Virus record (IMG/VR): IMGVR_UViG_2671180574_000017
DNA: 5,162 bases
Origin: a virus
Taxonomy: Duplodnaviria; Heunggongvirae; Uroviricota; Caudoviricetes
Strand: one strand, 5' to 3'
Shown: positions 1 to 5,162 of the stretch, one piece after another
How positions within the stretch are numbered: the stretch's first letter is position 1
How the letters are laid out: every line of letters begins with the position of its first letter
Program-made: the position numbers and the translations under genes
The notes under the pieces: model-generated
The model's input: only the letters and a program-made list of their open reading frames with translations
Database searches by the model: none
Told to the model about the DNA's origin: nothing

Positions 1-39
1 AACAAATGGTAGTGTCCGCTATTGCCAGTACACCTCAGG
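1..39 (+). mobile_element. Right-terminal fragment of an IS3-family insertion sequence; the body of this copy lies upstream of the window
   Basis: Bases 1-39 are identical to 2098-2136, the sequence just after the transposase stop of the IS at 1214-2136; the two diverge after ...cctcagg. The end resembles an IS3-group terminal repeat (GTGTCC.CTATTGC...CA). Confidence 0.7.
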
Positions 40-1213: not shown

Positions 1214-2089
1214 ATCGCTGAAAAATACGCGTTAATCGAACAATGGCGACAACAATTTCCCATTGAAGCGATGTGTCAGGTATTTGGTGTATCCAGGAGC
1301 GGTTATTACAACTGGGTACAGCATGAACCCTCAGACAGAAAACAAAGTGATGAGCGGCTAAAACTGGAGATTAAGGTGGCACATATCCGCACTCGCGAAA
1401 CATATGGAACCCGGCGGCTCCAGACGGAGCTGGCAGAGAATGGCATCATCGTTGGTCGTGACCGACTGGCACGTCTTCGTAAGGAGCTAAGGCTACGCTG
1501 TAAGCAGAAACGCAAGTTCAGAGCGACTACGAACTCGAACCACAATCTGCCAGTTGCGCCAAATCTGCTGAACCAGACGTTCGCTCCTACAGCACCAAAT
1601 CAGGTCTGGGTGGCGGACCTGACGTATGTTGCCACACAGGAGGGATGGTTGTACCTCGCTGGCATCAAAGATGTTTATACGTGCGAAATTGTCGGCTACG
1701 CCATGGGAGAGCGCATGACAAAAGAGCTGACAGGTAAAGCCCTGTTTATGGCGCTCAGGAGCCAGCGCCCACCTGCCGGGCTAATCCACCACTCTGATCG
1801 AGGTTCACAGTACTGCGCATACGATTACCGGGTCATACAGGAGCAGTCTGGTCTGAAAACATCAATGTCGCGTAAAGGTAACTGTTACGACAACGCTCCG
1901 ATGGAAAGCTTCTGGGGAACGCTGAAAAATGAGAGCCTGAGCCACTATCGTTTTAATAACCGGGATGAAGCCATCTCAGTAATACGGGAATACATTGAGA
2001 TTTTCTACAATCGTCAGCGTCGTCACTCTCGTCTGGGGAATATCTCCCCGGCAGCCTTCAGGGAAAAATATCATCAGATGGCTGCTTAA
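1202..2089 (+). CDS. IS3-family transposase OrfB (DDE integrase-core domain) fragment; authentic IS sequence starts at 1214, and the first four codons (MYLP) come from the adjacent module
   Basis: Translation aligns with IS3 InsF-type OrfB (e.g. QFPIEAMCQVFGVSRSGYYNW ... DLTYV ... HSDRGSQY ... CYDNAPMESFWGTLKNE); recalled from memory, not searched. Confidence 0.85.
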   Translation: MYLPIAEKYALIEQWRQQFPIEAMCQVFGVSRSGYYNWVQHEPSDRKQSDERLKLEIKVAHIRTRETYGTRRLQTELAENGIIVGRDRLARLRKELRLRCKQKRKFRATTNSNHNLPVAPNLLNQTFAPTAPNQVWVADLTYVATQEGWLYLAGIKDVYTCEIVGYAMGERMTKELTGKALFMALRSQRPPAGLIHHSDRGSQYCAYDYRVIQEQSGLKTSMSRKGNCYDNAPMESFWGTLKNESLSHYRFNNRDEAISVIREYIEIFYNRQRRHSRLGNISPAAFREKYHQMAA

Positions 2090-2136
2090 AAAAAGAACAA
2101 ATGGTAGTGTCCGCTATTGCCAGTACACCTCAGGAT
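1214..2136 (+). mobile_element. IS3-family insertion sequence, 5'-truncated (orfA and left inverted repeat missing)
   Basis: Carries the transposase OrfB frame and an IS3-like right end; the left end abuts the 747-bp module directly at 1213/1214 with no OrfA and no left terminal repeat. Confidence 0.85.
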
Positions 2137-2321
2137 AGCGGTCATGTGATGCCGGTTTCCCGGTAACTCAGCACCGGTATCTGAGTCAACGTTTTCTCTA
2201 CTGGGTCATTTCCGATACGCCCTGCCTGCTGACAGGCTTTCATCACATCTGAAAATATAGCACCCTGACTGATACTGTAGTACCTAAGGTTCCAGAAACT
2301 GTGATGTATCCGGCACAGAAA

Positions 2322-2544
2322 AGCCCCTCCGGAGAGGGCTGGAGAGTGGCGCTATGTGCCATTGCATGATGCCGGGTGCCTCCCGGTGAATTCAGTACCA
2401 GCACCTGAATCCGCGATTATCCCATATACCTACTCGCTGATTGCCCCTCCGCACAGGGGGATTCACCATGCCAGTTTCTTTTAACAAACTCCCCGCAAAA
2501 CAGACAACTGTCAACCGTCTGAATTGTGAGACATTTAAAAAAAA
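2322..2544. repeat. Third, diverged copy (roughly 97% identity) of the 223-bp core of the module (matches 796-1018 and 3857-4079)
   Basis: Direct comparison shows a handful of substitutions and one 1-bp indel; homology ends sharply on both sides. Confidence 0.85.
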
Positions 2545-2562
2545 GGCCCGCAAAAGCGAGCC
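2537..2562 (-). terminator. Rho-independent terminator immediately downstream of the minus-strand tRNA-Arg
   Basis: Minus-strand RNA GGCUCGC-UUUU-GCGGGCC (one U-G wobble) followed by eight U residues. Confidence 0.7.
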
Positions 2563-2576
2563 AGGGAAAATAAGTG

Positions 2577-2653
2577 TGGCGCGTTGTACTGGATTCGAAC
2601 CAGTGACCGATTGCTTAGAAGGCAATTGCTCTGTCCGGCTGAGCTAACAACGC
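2577..2653 (-). tRNA. tRNA-Arg (anticodon UCU)
   Basis: Manual cloverleaf: acceptor GCGTTGT/ACAACGC, D-stem GCTC/GAGC, anticodon stem ATTGC/GCAAT with loop CTTCTAA, T-arm ACTGG-TTCGAAT-CCAGT, discriminator G, encoded CCA. Confidence 0.85.
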
Positions 2654-2666
2654 ATGATGCAGATAA

Positions 2667-2743
2667 TGGACCGCCATCGGGGACTTGAACCCCGCGCAGC
2701 CAGCTTCGAAGGCTGGCGCTCTTTCCTGATGAGCTAATGGCGG
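2667..2743 (-). tRNA. tRNA-Arg (anticodon UCG), phage-type
   Basis: Manual cloverleaf: acceptor CCGCCAT/ATGGCGG, D-stem GCTC/GAGC, anticodon stem CCAGC/GCTGG with loop CTTCGAA, T-arm CGGGG-TTCAAGT-CCCCG, encoded CCA. Confidence 0.75.
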
Positions 2744-2750
2744 TATGTGA

Positions 2751-2796
2751 TGGTGGCCCTTGCTGGATTTGAACCAGCGACCTGGCGATTATGAGT
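2751..2796 (-). tRNA. 3' partial tRNA-Ile (CAU): 46 nt from the anticodon loop to CCA, with the 5' half replaced by unrelated DNA (att-like remnant)
   Basis: Identical to the 3' 46 nt of the intact tRNA at 4910-4985; identity stops at the anticodon stem-loop boundary. Confidence 0.8.
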
Positions 2797-2905
2797 TGGT
2801 TGATAACCCTTTACTTACAGATACTTAGCGATACTTTTCAATACCTTAGCATTTTTTAAAACTACTGTATAAATACCTGTATATACCCCAAAATACTTCT
2901 TTACG

Positions 2906-2953
2906 GTATCCTATAGGTATCCTGGAGCAGAACAAGCGATTTTCCAGGATACC
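2906..2953. promoter_or_regulatory. Cluster of GGTATCCT repeats (two direct, one inverted) between the tRNA fragment and the integrase start; candidate integrase arm-type sites or int operator
   Basis: GGTATCCT at 2906-2913 and 2916-2923; perfect 11-bp inverted repeat GGTATCCTGGA (2916-2926) / TCCAGGATACC (2943-2953). Confidence 0.35.
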
Positions 2954-2976
2954 AGATCGCTTGGTGGGGTGTATGA

Positions 2977-3528
2977 GTGAAATTATTCAGATTCTCTAAA
3001 GTAAAAATTGCAGAACTGCCAACGCCGGAACATGGACAGGTCGAATATGGTGATACGGAGGTTAACGGGCTGCGTGTCCGTGTAGGTTCGTCTGGTGTGA
3101 AAAGTTTCTGCATTTCCCGTAAGCGTAACGGAAAATTTATTCGTGCAACGCTGGGGCGTTTTCCTGATCTGAGCGTGGATAATGCCAGGGCTAAAGCTAT
3201 GGAACTCCTTGGCGAAGTCGCCACAACGGGGATAAATCCGAACATAGCAAAGCGCACTAACAACAAGGCCATGATAACGCTGAGTGAGGCGATTGACGCC
3301 TACGTAAAAAATCGTGGCCACCGCCTGAAACCCGCCACAGAAAAACAGTACCGCAGCATATTACAGAATTATTCCGGTGACTGGATGGCCCATACCCTCG
3401 CCAGTATTTCCCGCGAACGGGTGGAACAACGGCATAAGGCCATCACTGATGGGGCTGTATGGTTCGGTGCTGATAAAACCACGTTACGGGCTGGGGTTGG
3501 TACAGGAAGCAAGGCACAGGCCGATTAG
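2977..3528 (+). CDS. Tyrosine recombinase / phage integrase, N-terminal fragment (arm-binding and SAM-like domains), 3'-truncated at the module boundary
   Basis: GTG start after a GGTGGGG RBS-like run; the N-terminal ~150 aa shows the typical arm-binding-domain pattern (GL.VRV...G.KSF......GK.....[15 protein letters not shown]...V..GINP) and then a linker ([11 protein letters not shown]...[13 protein letters not shown]); no catalytic domain; the stop codon overlaps the first base of the module. Confidence 0.75.
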
Positions 3529-4274
3529 GAATATCTTTTTCAGTCATATGGAGTAAAATAAAATTAATAATCTGGTATCAATCGGATGCTTTCTTACCTC
3601 CTGAAAGTATATTTACACTGACTCACACAGGCATCATGCTCAATAACAAAGTGCTACCTGTAACCATTTACAACGTAGTACCATTCAATAAAACATTCTG
3701 GAATTCAATCAAAAATAGCCAGGAATGCCCTACAAATACAGATAACGTATTGAATGAATGCTTTAATAACCGTTGCACTCTGCAAATATGTCCTTATGGA
3801 CTAAAACAACAAAGTCCATAAGGAGTTTACTCACATCTGACAAAATCAATATAAACAGCCCCTCCGGAGAGGGGCTGGAGAGTGGCGCTATGTGCCATTG
3901 CATGGTGCCGGGTGCCTCCCGGTGAATTCAGTACCAGCACCTGAATCCGCGATTATCCCATATACCTACTCGCTGATTGCCCCTCCGCACAGGGGGATTC
4001 ACCATGCCAGTTTCTTTTAACAAACTCCCCGCAAACCAGACAACAGTCAACCGCCTGAATTGTGAAGTATTTAAAAATTTCTCCCGCTAACTGATACCCG
4101 GCTAACAGTCTGGCGTTTTCTTTTTCAGCAACGGGAAAGCAACAACCACCACACCCGCCACCAGCACACCGTCAGCCAGCACTGACATTATCCGGCTGCT
4201 GCAATGCCATTCACAAAAACAGTAAGCAATCACTTTTTACCGTAACAGGTGATAATCCAGATATGTATCTACCC
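3528..4274. repeat. 747-bp duplicated module, copy 2 (100% identical to 467-1213)
   Basis: See copy 1; here it lies between the truncated integrase (plus) and a truncated minus-strand ORF. Confidence 0.9.
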
Positions 4275-4622
4275 CAGATGAGTAATCCGAAGTTCATCCA
4301 TACCACAGGTCCTGGCTATTCTGTTGTACTCCTGAACAAGAGCAAATAATTCTGAATTAGCAACCATGAACTCATCGCAAACCCTCTGTATAGCATCACT
4401 ATTCAGAATAATAACGTCTCTTCCCGAAAGACGATCAGGAGTACAGAACAAAACTGTCAAACGGCTGAAGGCCTTTGCTCGTGCTGCATTGACTATATCA
4501 ATACGCTGCCTAAGGATGAAACACCCCGACGCCTCATCAATATTCACTCTACCCACACCATATGAATGATAAATATTTAATGCTGAAAAAACCATTAGAC
4601 CGTATAACAAACACTCAATCAA
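4269..4622 (-). CDS. Hypothetical protein, probably a 3'-truncated fragment (last codon and stop are supplied by the module end)
   Basis: ORF-track ORF (TTG start; internal ATG at codon 10); AT-rich codon usage; no recognisable homology; the frame ends exactly at the module boundary. Confidence 0.3.
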   Translation of the reverse strand: MIECLLYGLMVFSALNIYHSYGVGRVNIDEASGCFILRQRIDIVNAARAKAFSRLTVLFCTPDRLSGRDVIILNSDAIQRVCDEFMVANSELFALVQEYNRIARTCGMDELRITHLG

Positions 4623-4732
4623 TACTTAACAGAACTTTTATTTTTGACAAACATAAAATATTTTCAACAATATCCTGAGCCAGGTATATTTCAGTATAAG
4701 GCTCTGCCGGAAGGAATCTGGAAGAATGAATA

Positions 4733-4809
4733 TGGCGCGCTGTACTGGATTCGAACCAGTGACCGATTGCTTAGAAGGCAATTGCTCTGTCCGGCTGAGC
4801 TAACAACGC
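4733..4809 (-). tRNA. tRNA-Arg (anticodon UCU)
   Basis: Same cloverleaf as 2577-2653, with one acceptor-stem change giving a G-U pair; encoded CCA. Confidence 0.85.
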
Positions 4810-4822
4810 TGAATACCGATAA

Positions 4823-4902
4823 TGGACCGCCATCGGGGACCCGCCCCCGCACCAACAACCCTGTTATCGTGTCGTCTGCTCTTCCTGATAAGCTAATGGC
4901 GG
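4823..4902 (-). pseudogene. Degenerate tRNA-like gene (homolog of the tRNA-Arg UCG at 2667-2743); acceptor and D-arm kept, anticodon arm and T-loop replaced
   Basis: Both termini match 2667-2743 (TGGACCGCCATCGGGGAC ... CTAATGGCGG); the interior is a GC-rich 45-nt segment with no canonical anticodon arm and no TTC T-loop. Confidence 0.55.
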
Positions 4903-4909
4903 TTTGTGA

Positions 4910-4985
4910 TGGTGGCCCTTGCTGGATTTGAACCAGCGACCTGGCGATTATGAGTCGCTCGCTCTCACCACTGAGCTAAAGGGCC
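4910..4985 (-). tRNA. tRNA-Ile2 (anticodon CAU, lysidine-type; ileX/ileZ-like)
   Basis: Manual cloverleaf: acceptor GGCCCTT/AAGGGCC, D-arm GCTC-AGTGGTGA-GAGC, anticodon loop CTCATAA, T-arm GCTGG-TTCAAAT-CCAGC, discriminator A, CCA; closely resembles E. coli ileX as recalled. Confidence 0.85.
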
Positions 4986-5028
4986 GGGAGCAGAATAATA
5001 ACGGTCCGTAATTAATTCCGCAATAAAA

Positions 5029-5048
5029 AACCCGCTCGGCGGCGGGTT
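5029..5048 (-). terminator. Intrinsic terminator upstream of the tRNA array (tR'-like position)
   Basis: Minus-strand hairpin AACCCGC-CGCCGA-GCGGGTT followed by TTTTTTATT. Confidence 0.5.
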
Positions 5049-5095
5049 GTAGAAACTCTTCTAACGTCAGGCATAAAACGCCCATAGTTATGACG

Positions 5096-5123
5096 AATTT
5101 ACCACAGATTCCGGAAAAATCAA
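5096..5123 (-). promoter_or_regulatory. Candidate lambdoid late promoter (PR'-like) reading leftward into the terminator and tRNA array
   Basis: On the minus strand: TTGATT, 16-bp spacer, TAAATT, then ...ATGGG; this resembles the lambda PR' -10 TAAATT and ATGGG transcript start as recalled from memory. Confidence 0.35.
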
Positions 5124-5162
5124 CCTAGTTACCTTTTTTAACTGCCGCTCAGCCCATGCTTC

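Follow-up and report, generated by a model that had tools for sequence, protein, structure and literature searches.

A probable composite scar joining the stub of a tRNA-Ile2 satellite to DNA of a second lambdoid prophage

Classical tRNA-flanked islands carry a P4-type integrase gene beside a tRNA gene, and a direct repeat of the tRNA 3′ end at their far border. Stx phages and other lambdoid phages possess tRNA genes of their own, in a cluster with the order ileZ-argN-argO just downstream of the antiterminator gene Q. Gram-negative PICIs that target tRNA-Ile2 and carry a CLP_protease gene, as well as helper-embedded PICIs (HE-PICIs), have been described (Tommasini, Mageeney & Williams 2023, PMC10111431). 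The tRNA-Ile2 group consists of elements of ~10 kb with integrase, primase and ClpP-protease/capsid genes, in which tail, lysis and terminase genes as well as alpA are absent. HE-PICIs have integrases of one clade, interrupt late protein-coding genes and are co-directional with late transcription; the att arms of this integrase clade carry a doubled TGTATTGC motif (PMC10111431). Papers on O145:H28 strains mention that ileX is occupied by an integrative element, which they describe as a duplicate of the one at serX, and a literature search found nothing relevant on ileZ, or on ileX in combination with a satellite.

We analysed a stretch of 5,162 nt of viral DNA (the window), in which a first-pass annotation had proposed a 2.1-kb decayed integrative element at 2797-4909, bounded by attR- and attL-type tRNA-Ile 3′ halves and carrying its own tRNA relics. 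Our results make it likely that this supposed mini-element is not a single unit but consists of two fused parts, i.e. the dead stub of a satellite island and ordinary DNA of a second, related prophage region. The window would then be a composite scar in an IS-rich genome with several lambdoid prophage remnants, a reading that we hold with good confidence. This explanation was weighed as a whole, including insertion of the satellite into ileZ, fusion to a prophage region of a second type (P2-type, as opposed to P1-type) and the join to a truncated IS600.

The satellite junction lies at 2796/2797. On its left, 2751-2796 (− strand) is the 3′ half of a prophage tRNA-Ile2 gene (ileZ), from the anticodon loop to CCA; its breakpoint and diagnostic bases mark it as an attR-type, target-derived remnant. 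Sequence comparison places the break at the exact nucleotide seen in satellite copies sited at the chromosomal tRNA-Ile2 gene ileX (L003) and in an intact satellite within a prophage (L005). The tRNA half has the ileZ-type bases CCAGG, AAATCC and GCAAGGG, where ileX has TTGG, AAGTCC and GCAGGGG instead. Identity to L005 changes abruptly at the junction, from 99.9% on the satellite side to 93.5% on the array side. Empty sites were found as well: contig L015 is 100% identical to the window over 2536-2796 and then continues into a full ileZ, and the prophage of E. coli ATCC 11775 (L018) has the order Q - methyltransferase - ileZ - argN - argO with a full tRNA-Ile. One tRNA-Ile2 breakpoint thus recurred at ileX (L003, L004 and L019) and at prophage ileZ (L005 and the window), with ACTCATAATCGC (12 nt), at the anticodon loop, as the att identity block. 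From these comparisons, we read 2751-3527 as a genuine att junction of an integrative element; the integration site that the first-pass annotation had placed at this tRNA half and a truncated integrase is a true junction, with the same breakpoint in L003 and L005.

The same junction might have arisen by homologous recombination between a satellite at chromosomal ileX and prophage ileZ, with no integrase-mediated insertion. The two tRNA genes are ~91% identical over 46 nt, and rearrangements and IS elements abound in the genome lineage. However, the crossover would be confined to ACTCATAATCGC, because the bases directly 3′ of it are already ileZ-type, and 12 nt is far under the length required for RecA recombination. 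Moreover, L005 has both junctions of a clean insertion into prophage ileZ. We therefore regard recombination between ileX and ileZ as very improbable, and retain site-specific insertion as the preferred reading.

To the right of the junction, 2797-2976 (+ strand) is the integrase-proximal att arm of the satellite, with 99.9% identity to the satellite copies in L003-L007. Candidate arm-type sites are formed by the motif GGTATCC, which occurs twice in tandem at 2905-2922 and once in inverted orientation at 2947-2953; the tandem motif recurs in the far arm of L005 (30510-30527), and these repeats may bind the integrase. The arm is followed by an integrase stub of 183 codons (2977-3528, + strand), which ends in a stop codon created at the fusion point and is identical to residues 1-183 of the 475-aa tyrosine integrase of L005 at 183/183 positions. 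Its only Pfam domain match is the arm-binding domain Arm-DNA-bind_3 (PF13356), and the catalytic domain PF00589, at residues 266-403 of the full integrase, is not in the stub. The first-pass annotation was right to call this integrase truncated, as 183 of 475 residues are kept and the catalytic domain is missing. Integrase homology stops at 3526. Hence, satellite DNA in the window is limited to 2797-3526, or 730 bp (the arm plus 183 codons), of an original satellite of ~10.3 kb, which removes the 2.1-kb element supposed to lie between the repeats. Exact-protein look-ups of the stub, and of an ORF fusing prophage sequence to IS600 further left in the window, returned no match. A homologous-protein search with the stub retrieved other truncated integrases only, none of them fused to the interior of iraM as in the window, and a phage collection contained no match to 2797-3527.

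The intact comparator L005 is E. coli O111:H8 strain 7-58 72A (NZ_CP077499), in which a 10.3-kb satellite (20235-30575) lies inside a complete lambdoid prophage, between ileZ and argN-argO, with an attR architecture identical to that of the window. This satellite is 99.9% identical to the window stub. Its genes encode Arm-DNA-bind_3 + Phage_integrase, HTH_17, a D5_N/Pox_D5 primase, SSB and CLP_protease + Phage_capsid_4. This gene content agrees with that of Gram-negative PICI-type satellites (10-20 kb; integrase, AlpA/HTH_17-type regulator and primase/replication genes; often a capsid gene; tail, lysis and terminase genes absent). We conclude, from gene content and the literature match, that the parent of the window stub is probably a ~10-kb PICI-type satellite. 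In this satellite family the integrase gene lies at the end of the displaced tRNA fragment and points inward. Among 5426 complete E. coli genomes, an intact satellite in prophage ileZ occurred once (L005), and the window holds a relic; all three inspected copies of the chromosomal kind were sited at ileX. The att-junction string also retrieved two further copies of the satellite's integrase end from viral contigs, and no argN/argO-type tRNAs were detected on these two contigs. Database matches starting 7 nt before the tRNA end were considered as candidates for additional prophage-sited satellites; the one inspected (L019) proved to be ileX-sited.

Judged by description, the parent satellite resembles the tRNA-Ile2 PICIs (PMC10111431) in target, size and genes, both present and absent. 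It differs from them in that the window keeps only 730 bp, in that the target is a prophage-borne ileZ rather than a chromosomal gene, and in that L005 has an HTH_17 protein whereas the published group lacks alpA. As in HE-PICIs (PMC10111431), the L005 satellite is nested in the late transcription unit of a lambdoid prophage, downstream of Q. Its position between ileZ and argN-argO is internal to the prophage, and the attR of the window is likewise flanked by prophage argN-argO and a late-leader fragment. Unlike HE-PICIs, however, the element enters and regenerates a tRNA gene rather than interrupting a late protein-coding gene, the repeated arm motif found is GGTATCC rather than a doubled TGTATTGC, and in L005 the element opposes late transcription. 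The usual home of the satellite is chromosomal, and its embedding in a prophage is consequently probably due to target mimicry. With classical tRNA islands, the locus shares an integrase with an N-terminal Arm-DNA-bind_3 domain and a tRNA 3′ segment as att repeat. In contrast to these islands, the satellite family has its integrase at the displaced-fragment end, and the second repeat in the window is no partner att site.

This second repeat belongs to a P2-type tRNA array at 4733-4985 (− strand), delineated by ARAGORN, Rfam and comparison, which comprises argO′ (4733-4809), a degenerate argN′ (~4823-4899) and an intact, unoccupied ileZ′ (4910-4985). The latter is a complete tRNA gene with anticodon CAT, whose homologue is named ileZ, next to argN and argO, in GenBank phage records; argO′ is a good tRNA-Arg(TCT). 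For argN′ there was no ARAGORN call and no Rfam match at E<=0.1. The array is shared with E. coli 042 (L001), where annotation and ARAGORN recover only one tRNA-Arg and the tRNA-Ile. Positions 2751-2796 and 4910-4955 are identical at 46/46 nt, exact identity extends 5 nt further left, and the full repeat measures 74 nt at 97% identity. The two 46-nt repeats that had been taken for a pair of att copies are therefore real and perfect, and the left one is a junction, but the right one is part of the intact ileZ′.

A 2.1-kb decayed element spanning 2797-4909 would explain why an integrase stub lies just inside one of two perfect direct repeats. Several findings contradict it. The repeat does not stop at the tRNA 3′ end but includes a further 28 nt that reach into the 5′ end of argN, and thus represents homology between two arrays rather than an att duplication. 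Insertion is expected to leave a displaced target 3′ half and a regenerated tRNA with the element's own 3′ half, and only the junction at 2796/2797 is present. The attL tRNA of L005 carries a third, satellite-type 3′ half (TTGGTCGTTGGTTCAAACCCAACAGGGGCC), whereas ileZ′ has a target-type 3′ half, is identical in sequence to empty sites, and does not differ from the integrase-less prophages L001, L002 and L008 in its 3′ half or in either flank. Because of this target-type half and these native flanks, ileZ′ is not attL; sequence identifies 4910-4985 as an unoccupied tRNA gene with a prophage-type 3′ half and no partner att site. Furthermore, prophages without the integrase have 3528-4909 in one contiguous stretch with ileZ′ and Q, and the intact 10.3-kb element has no tRNA-Arg genes inside. 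A single mini-element is accordingly extremely improbable, and we return to two fused parts.

The second of these parts extends to the end of the window. Positions 3528-5162 form one block, 99% colinear with E. coli 042 (L001 4433-6075) and with many other integrase-less prophages. Its portion up to 4909 is present and colinear in the integrase-less L001 and L008, and is native prophage DNA, not cargo. The small ORF at 4269-4622 (− strand), previously considered truncated, is complete and native to the P2-type prophage: its residues 10-117 cover profile positions 1-108/108 of phrog_2873 (E=3.8e-70), and the gene calls for contigs L009, L011 and L013 include it with 108 aa. Similarly, the Arg tRNA copies attributed to the element do include a degenerate middle tRNA, but they belong to this prophage block. 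The colinearity with L001 continues through the region between Q and ileZ′ (4986-5162, − strand) as far as the CDS of the antitermination protein. This region includes a terminator-like hairpin at 5048-5029 and, at the window edge, the final ~14 codons of Q (Q coordinates are approximate).

To the left of the satellite junction is DNA of the P1-type prophage. It begins with a leader fragment (2133-2576) that has its own STnc100 copy (2311-2500, − strand) and an IS600 right end inserted at its left edge. The P1-type array (2577-2743, − strand), detected by ARAGORN and Rfam tRNA, consists of intact argO (tRNA-Arg TCT, 2577-2653) and argN (tRNA-Arg TCG, 2667-2743). The whole of 2132-2796 is colinear at 98% with the prophage of E. 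coli ATCC 11775, and 2133-2600 is contiguous in 672 genomes. The tRNA genes of the window share gene order and a position just downstream of Q with the ileZ-argN-argO cluster in Stx and other lambdoid phages. In contrast to these phages, the window has no stx genes, one of its arrays has a degenerate argN, and the other lost the 5′ half of ileZ to the insertion.

The common gene order, together with STnc100 in both leaders, might suggest that one tRNA array was simply copied by segmental duplication and that the integrase was a separate acquisition. The arrays are only ~87% identical to each other, however, and each reaches 99-100% identity with its orthologues in a different widespread prophage type; the undetected middle tRNA of the right-hand array is likewise unannotated and undetected in E. 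coli 042. We find such a duplication scarcely credible, and on sequence grounds assign the two tRNA arrays to two prophage lineages. The earlier statement that the arrays are no recent tandem duplication was correct, and its caveat, that recombination between two related prophages had produced the structure, comes close to what the data show.

The left end of the window repeats part of the P2-type region. Positions 1-37 (+ strand) belong to an IS600 copy, most of which falls beyond the window, and represent its right end (100% match to the IS600 end in L002). They are followed by segment A (38-466), a late-region leader of P2-type lambdoid prophage that comprises a DUF1737 remnant, the sequence upstream of iraM and the 5′ part of this gene; the junction of IS600 with this flank (37/38) also occurs in contig L008. 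The iraM gene (425-760, + strand) matched the NCBIfam IraM family (E=4.7e-48), and 35-1213 is 99.7% identical to positions 4001-5179 of the E. coli 042 prophage L001. Module B copy 1 (467-1213) holds the 3′ part of iraM, an STnc100 sRNA gene (786-975, − strand; Rfam RF02076, 132 bits) and a DUF3927 gene (1041-1172, − strand; E=1.7e-27). In copy 2 (3528-4274), the iraM 3′ portion (3528-3821), STnc100 (3847-4036, − strand) and DUF3927 (4102-4233, − strand) recur, and the two are perfect 747-bp copies. The 747-bp module that had been assigned to the mini-element is therefore real, but native to the prophage block at 3528-5162.

Copy 1 is followed by a 5′-truncated IS600 (1214-2132, + strand) with orfB only (rve/HTH_21 and transpos_IS3 matches); 1215-2132 is 99.9% identical to IS600 in L002. 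Neither IS600 (IS3 family) sequence in the window is complete: 1214-2132 is the 3′ ~918 bp, and 1-37 is a right end cut by the window edge. The truncated IS600 meets the end of module B at 1213/1214 without homology. The repeat-bounded unit is 1214-4274 (3061 bp), flanked by the perfect 747-bp repeats, and the net order can be written as A-B-X-B-C with a period of 3061 bp. In the draft assembly contig L008, IS600-A-B-C is contiguous, with 100% and 99.94% identity to the window, and the 3061-bp unit is absent. As L008 is a draft, its A-B-C path could in principle represent a collapsed repeat.

The two novel junctions, of B with the IS600 interior and of the integrase with the iraM interior, share no homology, and neither is at an IS end. 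Adjacent deletion mediated by an IS end was rejected as their source for the latter reason. An IS3-type transposition circle was also rejected, as the right end of the IS lies inside the unit, and so was integrase-mediated recombination at a secondary site, as the fusion lies 550 nt inside the integrase gene and not at att. Probes of 101 nt over 1213/1214, 3527/3528 and 2132/2133 gave no full-length match in 5426 E. coli genomes, and a 100-nt probe over 37/38 gave one two-piece match spread across ~400 bp. The junction strings were also absent from genome, viral and metagenome contig collections. Window strings suited to searching complete Shigella/EIEC genomes are GACCTGGCGATTATGAGTTGGTTGATAACCC, GGCACAGGCCGATTAGGAATATC and ATCTACCCATCGCTGAAAAATACG.

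Each of the two novel junctions coincides exactly with an end of the 747-bp repeat, whose copies are 100% identical, and such a structure is equivalent to an assembly-graph loop. The true chromosome might thus be A-B-C, as in the near-identical L008; [B-X] would then be a circle, a tandemly amplified segment or a repeat loop threaded wrongly in assembly. Against this, junctions without homology must be present in the reads and cannot be made by repeat collapse, a 3-kb circle would have no replication function, and given both junctions A-B-X-B-C is the simplest linear solution. We consider an artefact or amplicon improbable, and continue with a composite scar in the chromosome.

The following sequence of events is proposed. 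The comparisons show that a PICI-type satellite integrated site-specifically into ileZ of a P1-type lambdoid prophage with the order Q - methyltransferase - ileZ - argN - argO. Strand exchange within ACTCATAATCGC left the original ileZ 3′ half (2751-2796) adjoining the integrase-proximal arm. The present structure lacks attL, the Q side of the P1-type prophage and all of the satellite that followed integrase codon 183. By a presumed second step, the integrase became joined at 3526-3528, without homology, to the iraM interior of a P2-type region that is native from the fusion through ileZ′ to Q. In a third step, IS600 would have inserted beside the P1 fragment and then been truncated itself, its remainder being joined at 1213/1214 to where a further, identical copy of the P2-type segment ends. 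The order A-B-X-B-C may have originated from two illegitimate deletions between neighbouring prophages, from homologous integration of a [B-X] circle, or from a templated insertion with duplication. The IS600 and IS1 copies, truncated genes and mosaic remnants are as in the IS-driven prophage decay of Shigella and enteroinvasive E. coli. In contrast to that process, the two key junctions coincide with neither IS end, and hence are no standard IS-mediated deletions.

Site-specific mobility is gone, since the catalytic domain and attL are both absent. Removal is possible only via RecA-type recombination between repeats, and recombination between the two B copies would regenerate A-B-C. Overall, the finding is an ordinary decay product, and its modest interest is that a tRNA-Ile2 satellite landed in a prophage tRNA gene. 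The direct importance of the window is low, because it holds a non-functional remnant only. For annotation, a tRNA half beside an integrase stub within a prophage should be read as a satellite scar, and att repeats can be mimicked by duplicated prophage tRNA arrays. For biology, a prophage-borne tRNA gene can take up a satellite whose normal place is the chromosomal paralogue, as seen intact in one of 5426 complete E. coli genomes and as a relic in the window. Such capture is a possible route to helper-embedded satellites, and may be a cost of tRNA gene carriage for phages.

Tentatively, one may go further and propose that tRNA-Ile2-specific PICIs use ileZ of lambdoid or Stx-type prophages, just downstream of Q, as a second functional attB. 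Satellites would then become helper-embedded by way of tRNA genes, a route that differs from the published one through late protein genes. We consider this broader proposal unlikely on present sequences. The window and L005 would be two independent instances, as their array flanks are 93.5% identical and their satellite parts 99.9%. If the proposal is true, prophage tRNA genes serve as landing pads, and a satellite that lands there becomes nested in a potential helper. If such nesting is used biologically and is not accidental, satellite replication and excision would be coupled to helper induction, and the late promoter would be separated from the lysis and structural genes by 10 kb.

The arrangement of the window was absent from every complete E. 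coli genome and every phage record in whole-window searches, although each of its pieces individually matches familiar sequence. The right end of IS600 (1-37) is followed by the late-region leader of a lambdoid prophage (35-1213; 99.7% identical to E. coli 042), which contains a DUF1737 remnant, iraM, an STnc100-type sRNA and DUF3927. Next come the 3' ~918 bp of IS600 (1214-2132) and a segment of a second prophage type (2132-2796), 98% identical to and colinear with E. coli ATCC 11775, whose prophage has the order Q, hypothetical gene, DNA methyltransferase, ileZ, argN, argO and leader. The integrase end of an island present in 87 E. coli genomes (2797-3526; 99.9% identity) then precedes a block that is 99% identical to and colinear with E. 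coli 042 in one piece (3528-5162), comprising the interior of iraM, DUF3927, a small ORF, argO', a degenerate argN', ileZ' and the end of Q. STnc100 (RF02076) occurs three times on the minus strand (786-975, 2311-2500 and 3847-4036), once per prophage leader segment, with scores of 124-132 bits against an Rfam gathering score of 47. These copies account for the 219-nt three-copy repeat family of the window. Each ends in a strong terminator-like hairpin, located at 3877-3856 by hairpin scan for the 3847-4036 copy. Terminator-like hairpins with a T-run were also found on the minus strand between Q and ileZ', in a tR'-like position (5029-5048), and immediately after argO of the left array (2545-2562).

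ARAGORN detected four tRNA genes in the window, all on the minus strand and all recovered by the Rfam scan: tRNA-Arg(TCT) at 2577-2653, tRNA-Arg(TCG) at 2667-2743, another tRNA-Arg(TCT) at 4733-4809 and a CAT-anticodon tRNA at 4910-4985. Homologous genes are named argO, argN and ileZ in GenBank phage records, and form the tRNA cluster of lambdoid and Stx phages just downstream of the antiterminator gene Q. The direct repeats reported in the first-pass annotation are real: 2751-2796 matches the 3' half of the CAT tRNA (4910-4955) at 46/46 nt, and the repeat continues for 28 nt at 97% through the spacer into the 5' end of the next tRNA. The middle tRNA of the right array is indeed degenerate, with no Rfam match at E ≤ 0.1 and degeneracy visible in the alignment. 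This argN' (~4823-4899, minus strand) retains both tRNA ends around a replaced core of ~40 nt. E. coli 042 likewise has no annotated or detected tRNA at this position, and hence the degeneration is older than the rearrangement in the window. The two arrays are only ~87% identical to each other, whereas identity to their respective orthologues is 99-100%; they therefore stem from two prophage lineages (P1-type on the left, P2-type on the right) rather than from local duplication.

The integrase is truncated as proposed. ORF 2977-3528 corresponds to the first 183 residues of a 475-aa tyrosine recombinase (183/183 identical) and contains the Arm-DNA-bind_3 domain alone, as the catalytic domain (residues 266-403) is gone. 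Inspection of E. coli genomes L003, L004 and L019 placed the intact gene at the start of a ~10-kb island adjoining nfeF, a site that we take to be the ileX locus on the K-12 map. The ileX assignment is based on the tRNA-Ile2 3' half at this site, which departs from ileZ at diagnostic positions. The island encodes the integrase, an HTH_17 protein, an Icd-like protein, a D5-type primase, SSB and a ClpP-protease/major-capsid fusion, and contains no tail, lysis or terminase genes. This gene content is that of a Gram-negative PICI-type phage satellite. PICIs in tRNA-Ile2 genes, with a CLP_protease gene and distinctive integrases, have been described (Tommasini, Mageeney, Williams; PMC10111431), and the island is taken to belong to the same group, matched by description rather than by sequence.

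Only one of 5426 complete E. coli genomes, that of O111:H8 strain 7-58 72A (L005; NZ_CP077499.1), has a match spanning argO, argN, the half tRNA and the integrase. It carries an intact 10.3-kb PICI-type satellite (L005 20235-30651), oriented against late transcription, between ileZ and argN-argO of a complete lambdoid prophage. In Stx phages, this interval is occupied by stx. Beyond argO, L005 has an IS66-family element. The T-arm of the attL tRNA (L005 30576-30651) is unlike that of both ileX and ileZ (GTCGTTGGTTCAAACCCAAC versus GTCGCTGGTTCAAATCCAGC in ileZ). The substitutions affect both strands of the stem, and the satellite thus brings its own, apparently foldable, tRNA-Ile2 3' half. A GGTATCC-N4-GGTATCC tandem is present in the integrase-proximal arm of the window (2905-2922) and in the distal arm of the intact satellite (L005 30510-30527), with an inverted GGTATCC near the integrase start (2947-2953); these motifs are candidate arm-type integrase binding sites.

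We compared the att-site sequences on the tRNA sense strand. The block ACTCATAATCGC was common to all sites compared, i.e. the empty prophage sites, the left copy in the window, the ileX-sited copies, and attR and attL of L005. The empty prophage sites (L015, L018) read ...GAGCGAGCG-ACTCATAATCGC-CAGGTCGCTGGTTCAAATCCAGCAAGGGCCACCA. The left copy in the window reads ...GGGTTATCAACCA-ACTCATAATCGC-CAGG..., with the satellite arm followed by an ileZ-type 3' half, and L005 attR has the same build of arm, breakpoint and ileZ-type half. The ileX-sited copies share this arm and breakpoint and continue into an ileX-type half (TTGG...AAGTCC...GCAGGGG), while at L005 attL the tRNA is complete and has a third type of 3' half, borne by the satellite (TTGGTCGTTGGTTCAAACCCAACAGGGGCC). 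The target half lies at the integrase end and the element half in the regenerated tRNA, and the exchange between them is confined to the 12-nt block, which is the outcome expected when an element integrates site-specifically into a tRNA gene. Homologous recombination between an ileX-sited satellite and ileZ as the source of the left junction is implausible, because the crossover would have to fall within these 12 nt. Identity to L005 is 99.9% on the satellite side of the junction but drops to 93.5% on the array side, which instead matches the empty site L015 at 100%. The att pattern, the 12-nt exchange and the divergence step together identify 2751-3527 as a true attR and integrase stub left by a satellite that had inserted into a prophage-borne ileZ. 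Of the ~2.1-kb decayed integrative element previously proposed for 2797-4909, between two tRNA-Ile att copies, the left att site and the integrase stub thus hold, but the boundaries and the cargo do not.

The right-hand repeat is not the partner att site. The tRNA at 4910-4985 has an ileZ-type, not a satellite-type, 3' half, and is identical, including both flanks, to integrase-less prophages (L001, L002, L008). The supposed cargo, 3528-4909, is native prophage DNA, contiguous with ileZ' and Q in E. coli 042 and many other prophages. What had been read as the element's own tRNA relics is the ordinary array of this prophage type, for which 042 shows one tRNA-Arg and tRNA-Ile alone. ORF 4269-4622 (minus strand), between DUF3927 and argO', had been called truncated, but is a full-length member of phrog_2873 (unknown function), matching over the full profile; PGAP does not annotate it in E. 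coli 042; in Prodigal-type gene calls it is 108 aa long.

The 747-bp module was confirmed as perfectly identical 747-nt copies at 467-1213 and 3528-4274, with no extension on either side. Denoting the P2-type segments as A, B and C and the insert between the B copies as X, the order is A-B-X-B-C and the repeat period 3061 bp. The insert (1214-3527; 2314 bp) is made up of the truncated IS600, a P1-type fragment carrying argO, argN and attR, and the satellite stub. It is joined without homology at both edges: B is fused to the interior of IS600 on the left, and integrase codon 183 to the interior of iraM on the right, with one unmatched A at 3527. Neither fusion was found in 5426 complete E. coli genomes. 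The draft contig L008 (ADUU01000128.1, GCA_000188795.2) shares the IS600/A junction and has A-B-C contiguous at 1273-3373 without X, at 100% and 99.94% identity to the window. Hence, the empty form that was sought exists for the 3061-bp unit, not for a 2.1-kb element. The IS600 upstream of A in L008 is itself split by IS1 (1-1311), which suggests a Shigella- or EIEC-like lineage with a heavy IS load. The unit could have arisen by two illegitimate deletions between adjacent prophages, by integration of a [B-X] circle through homology, or by templated insertion with duplication. Less probably, the unit reflects an assembly loop or an amplicon; the two fusion junctions themselves must nevertheless be real sequence.

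The remnant no longer functions as a mobile element, because its integrase lacks the catalytic half and attL is lost, as is ~9.5 kb of the satellite. The intact ileZ' is a potential, unoccupied target. RecA-dependent deletion between direct repeats is the only foreseeable dynamics, with the B copies, the three STnc100-containing leaders and the tRNA arrays as candidate repeats; recombination between the B copies would restore A-B-C.

PICIs in tRNA-Ile2, helper-embedded PICIs, the ileZ-argN-argO cluster and IS-driven prophage decay are already known, and the window represents ordinary decay, with a single implication of modest interest. Prophage tRNA targets are not mentioned in PMC10111431, and no other report was found in the literature searched, of which coverage was incomplete. 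It seems improbable that satellites regularly use prophage ileZ as a second attB, becoming nested in their helpers in this way. In the described helper-embedded PICIs the target is a late protein gene, whereas here it is a prophage tRNA gene, and the L005 satellite further differs from them in its orientation against late transcription. These differences suggest that the satellite was captured in a prophage through target mimicry and that the embedding is not an evolved cis-regulatory arrangement.
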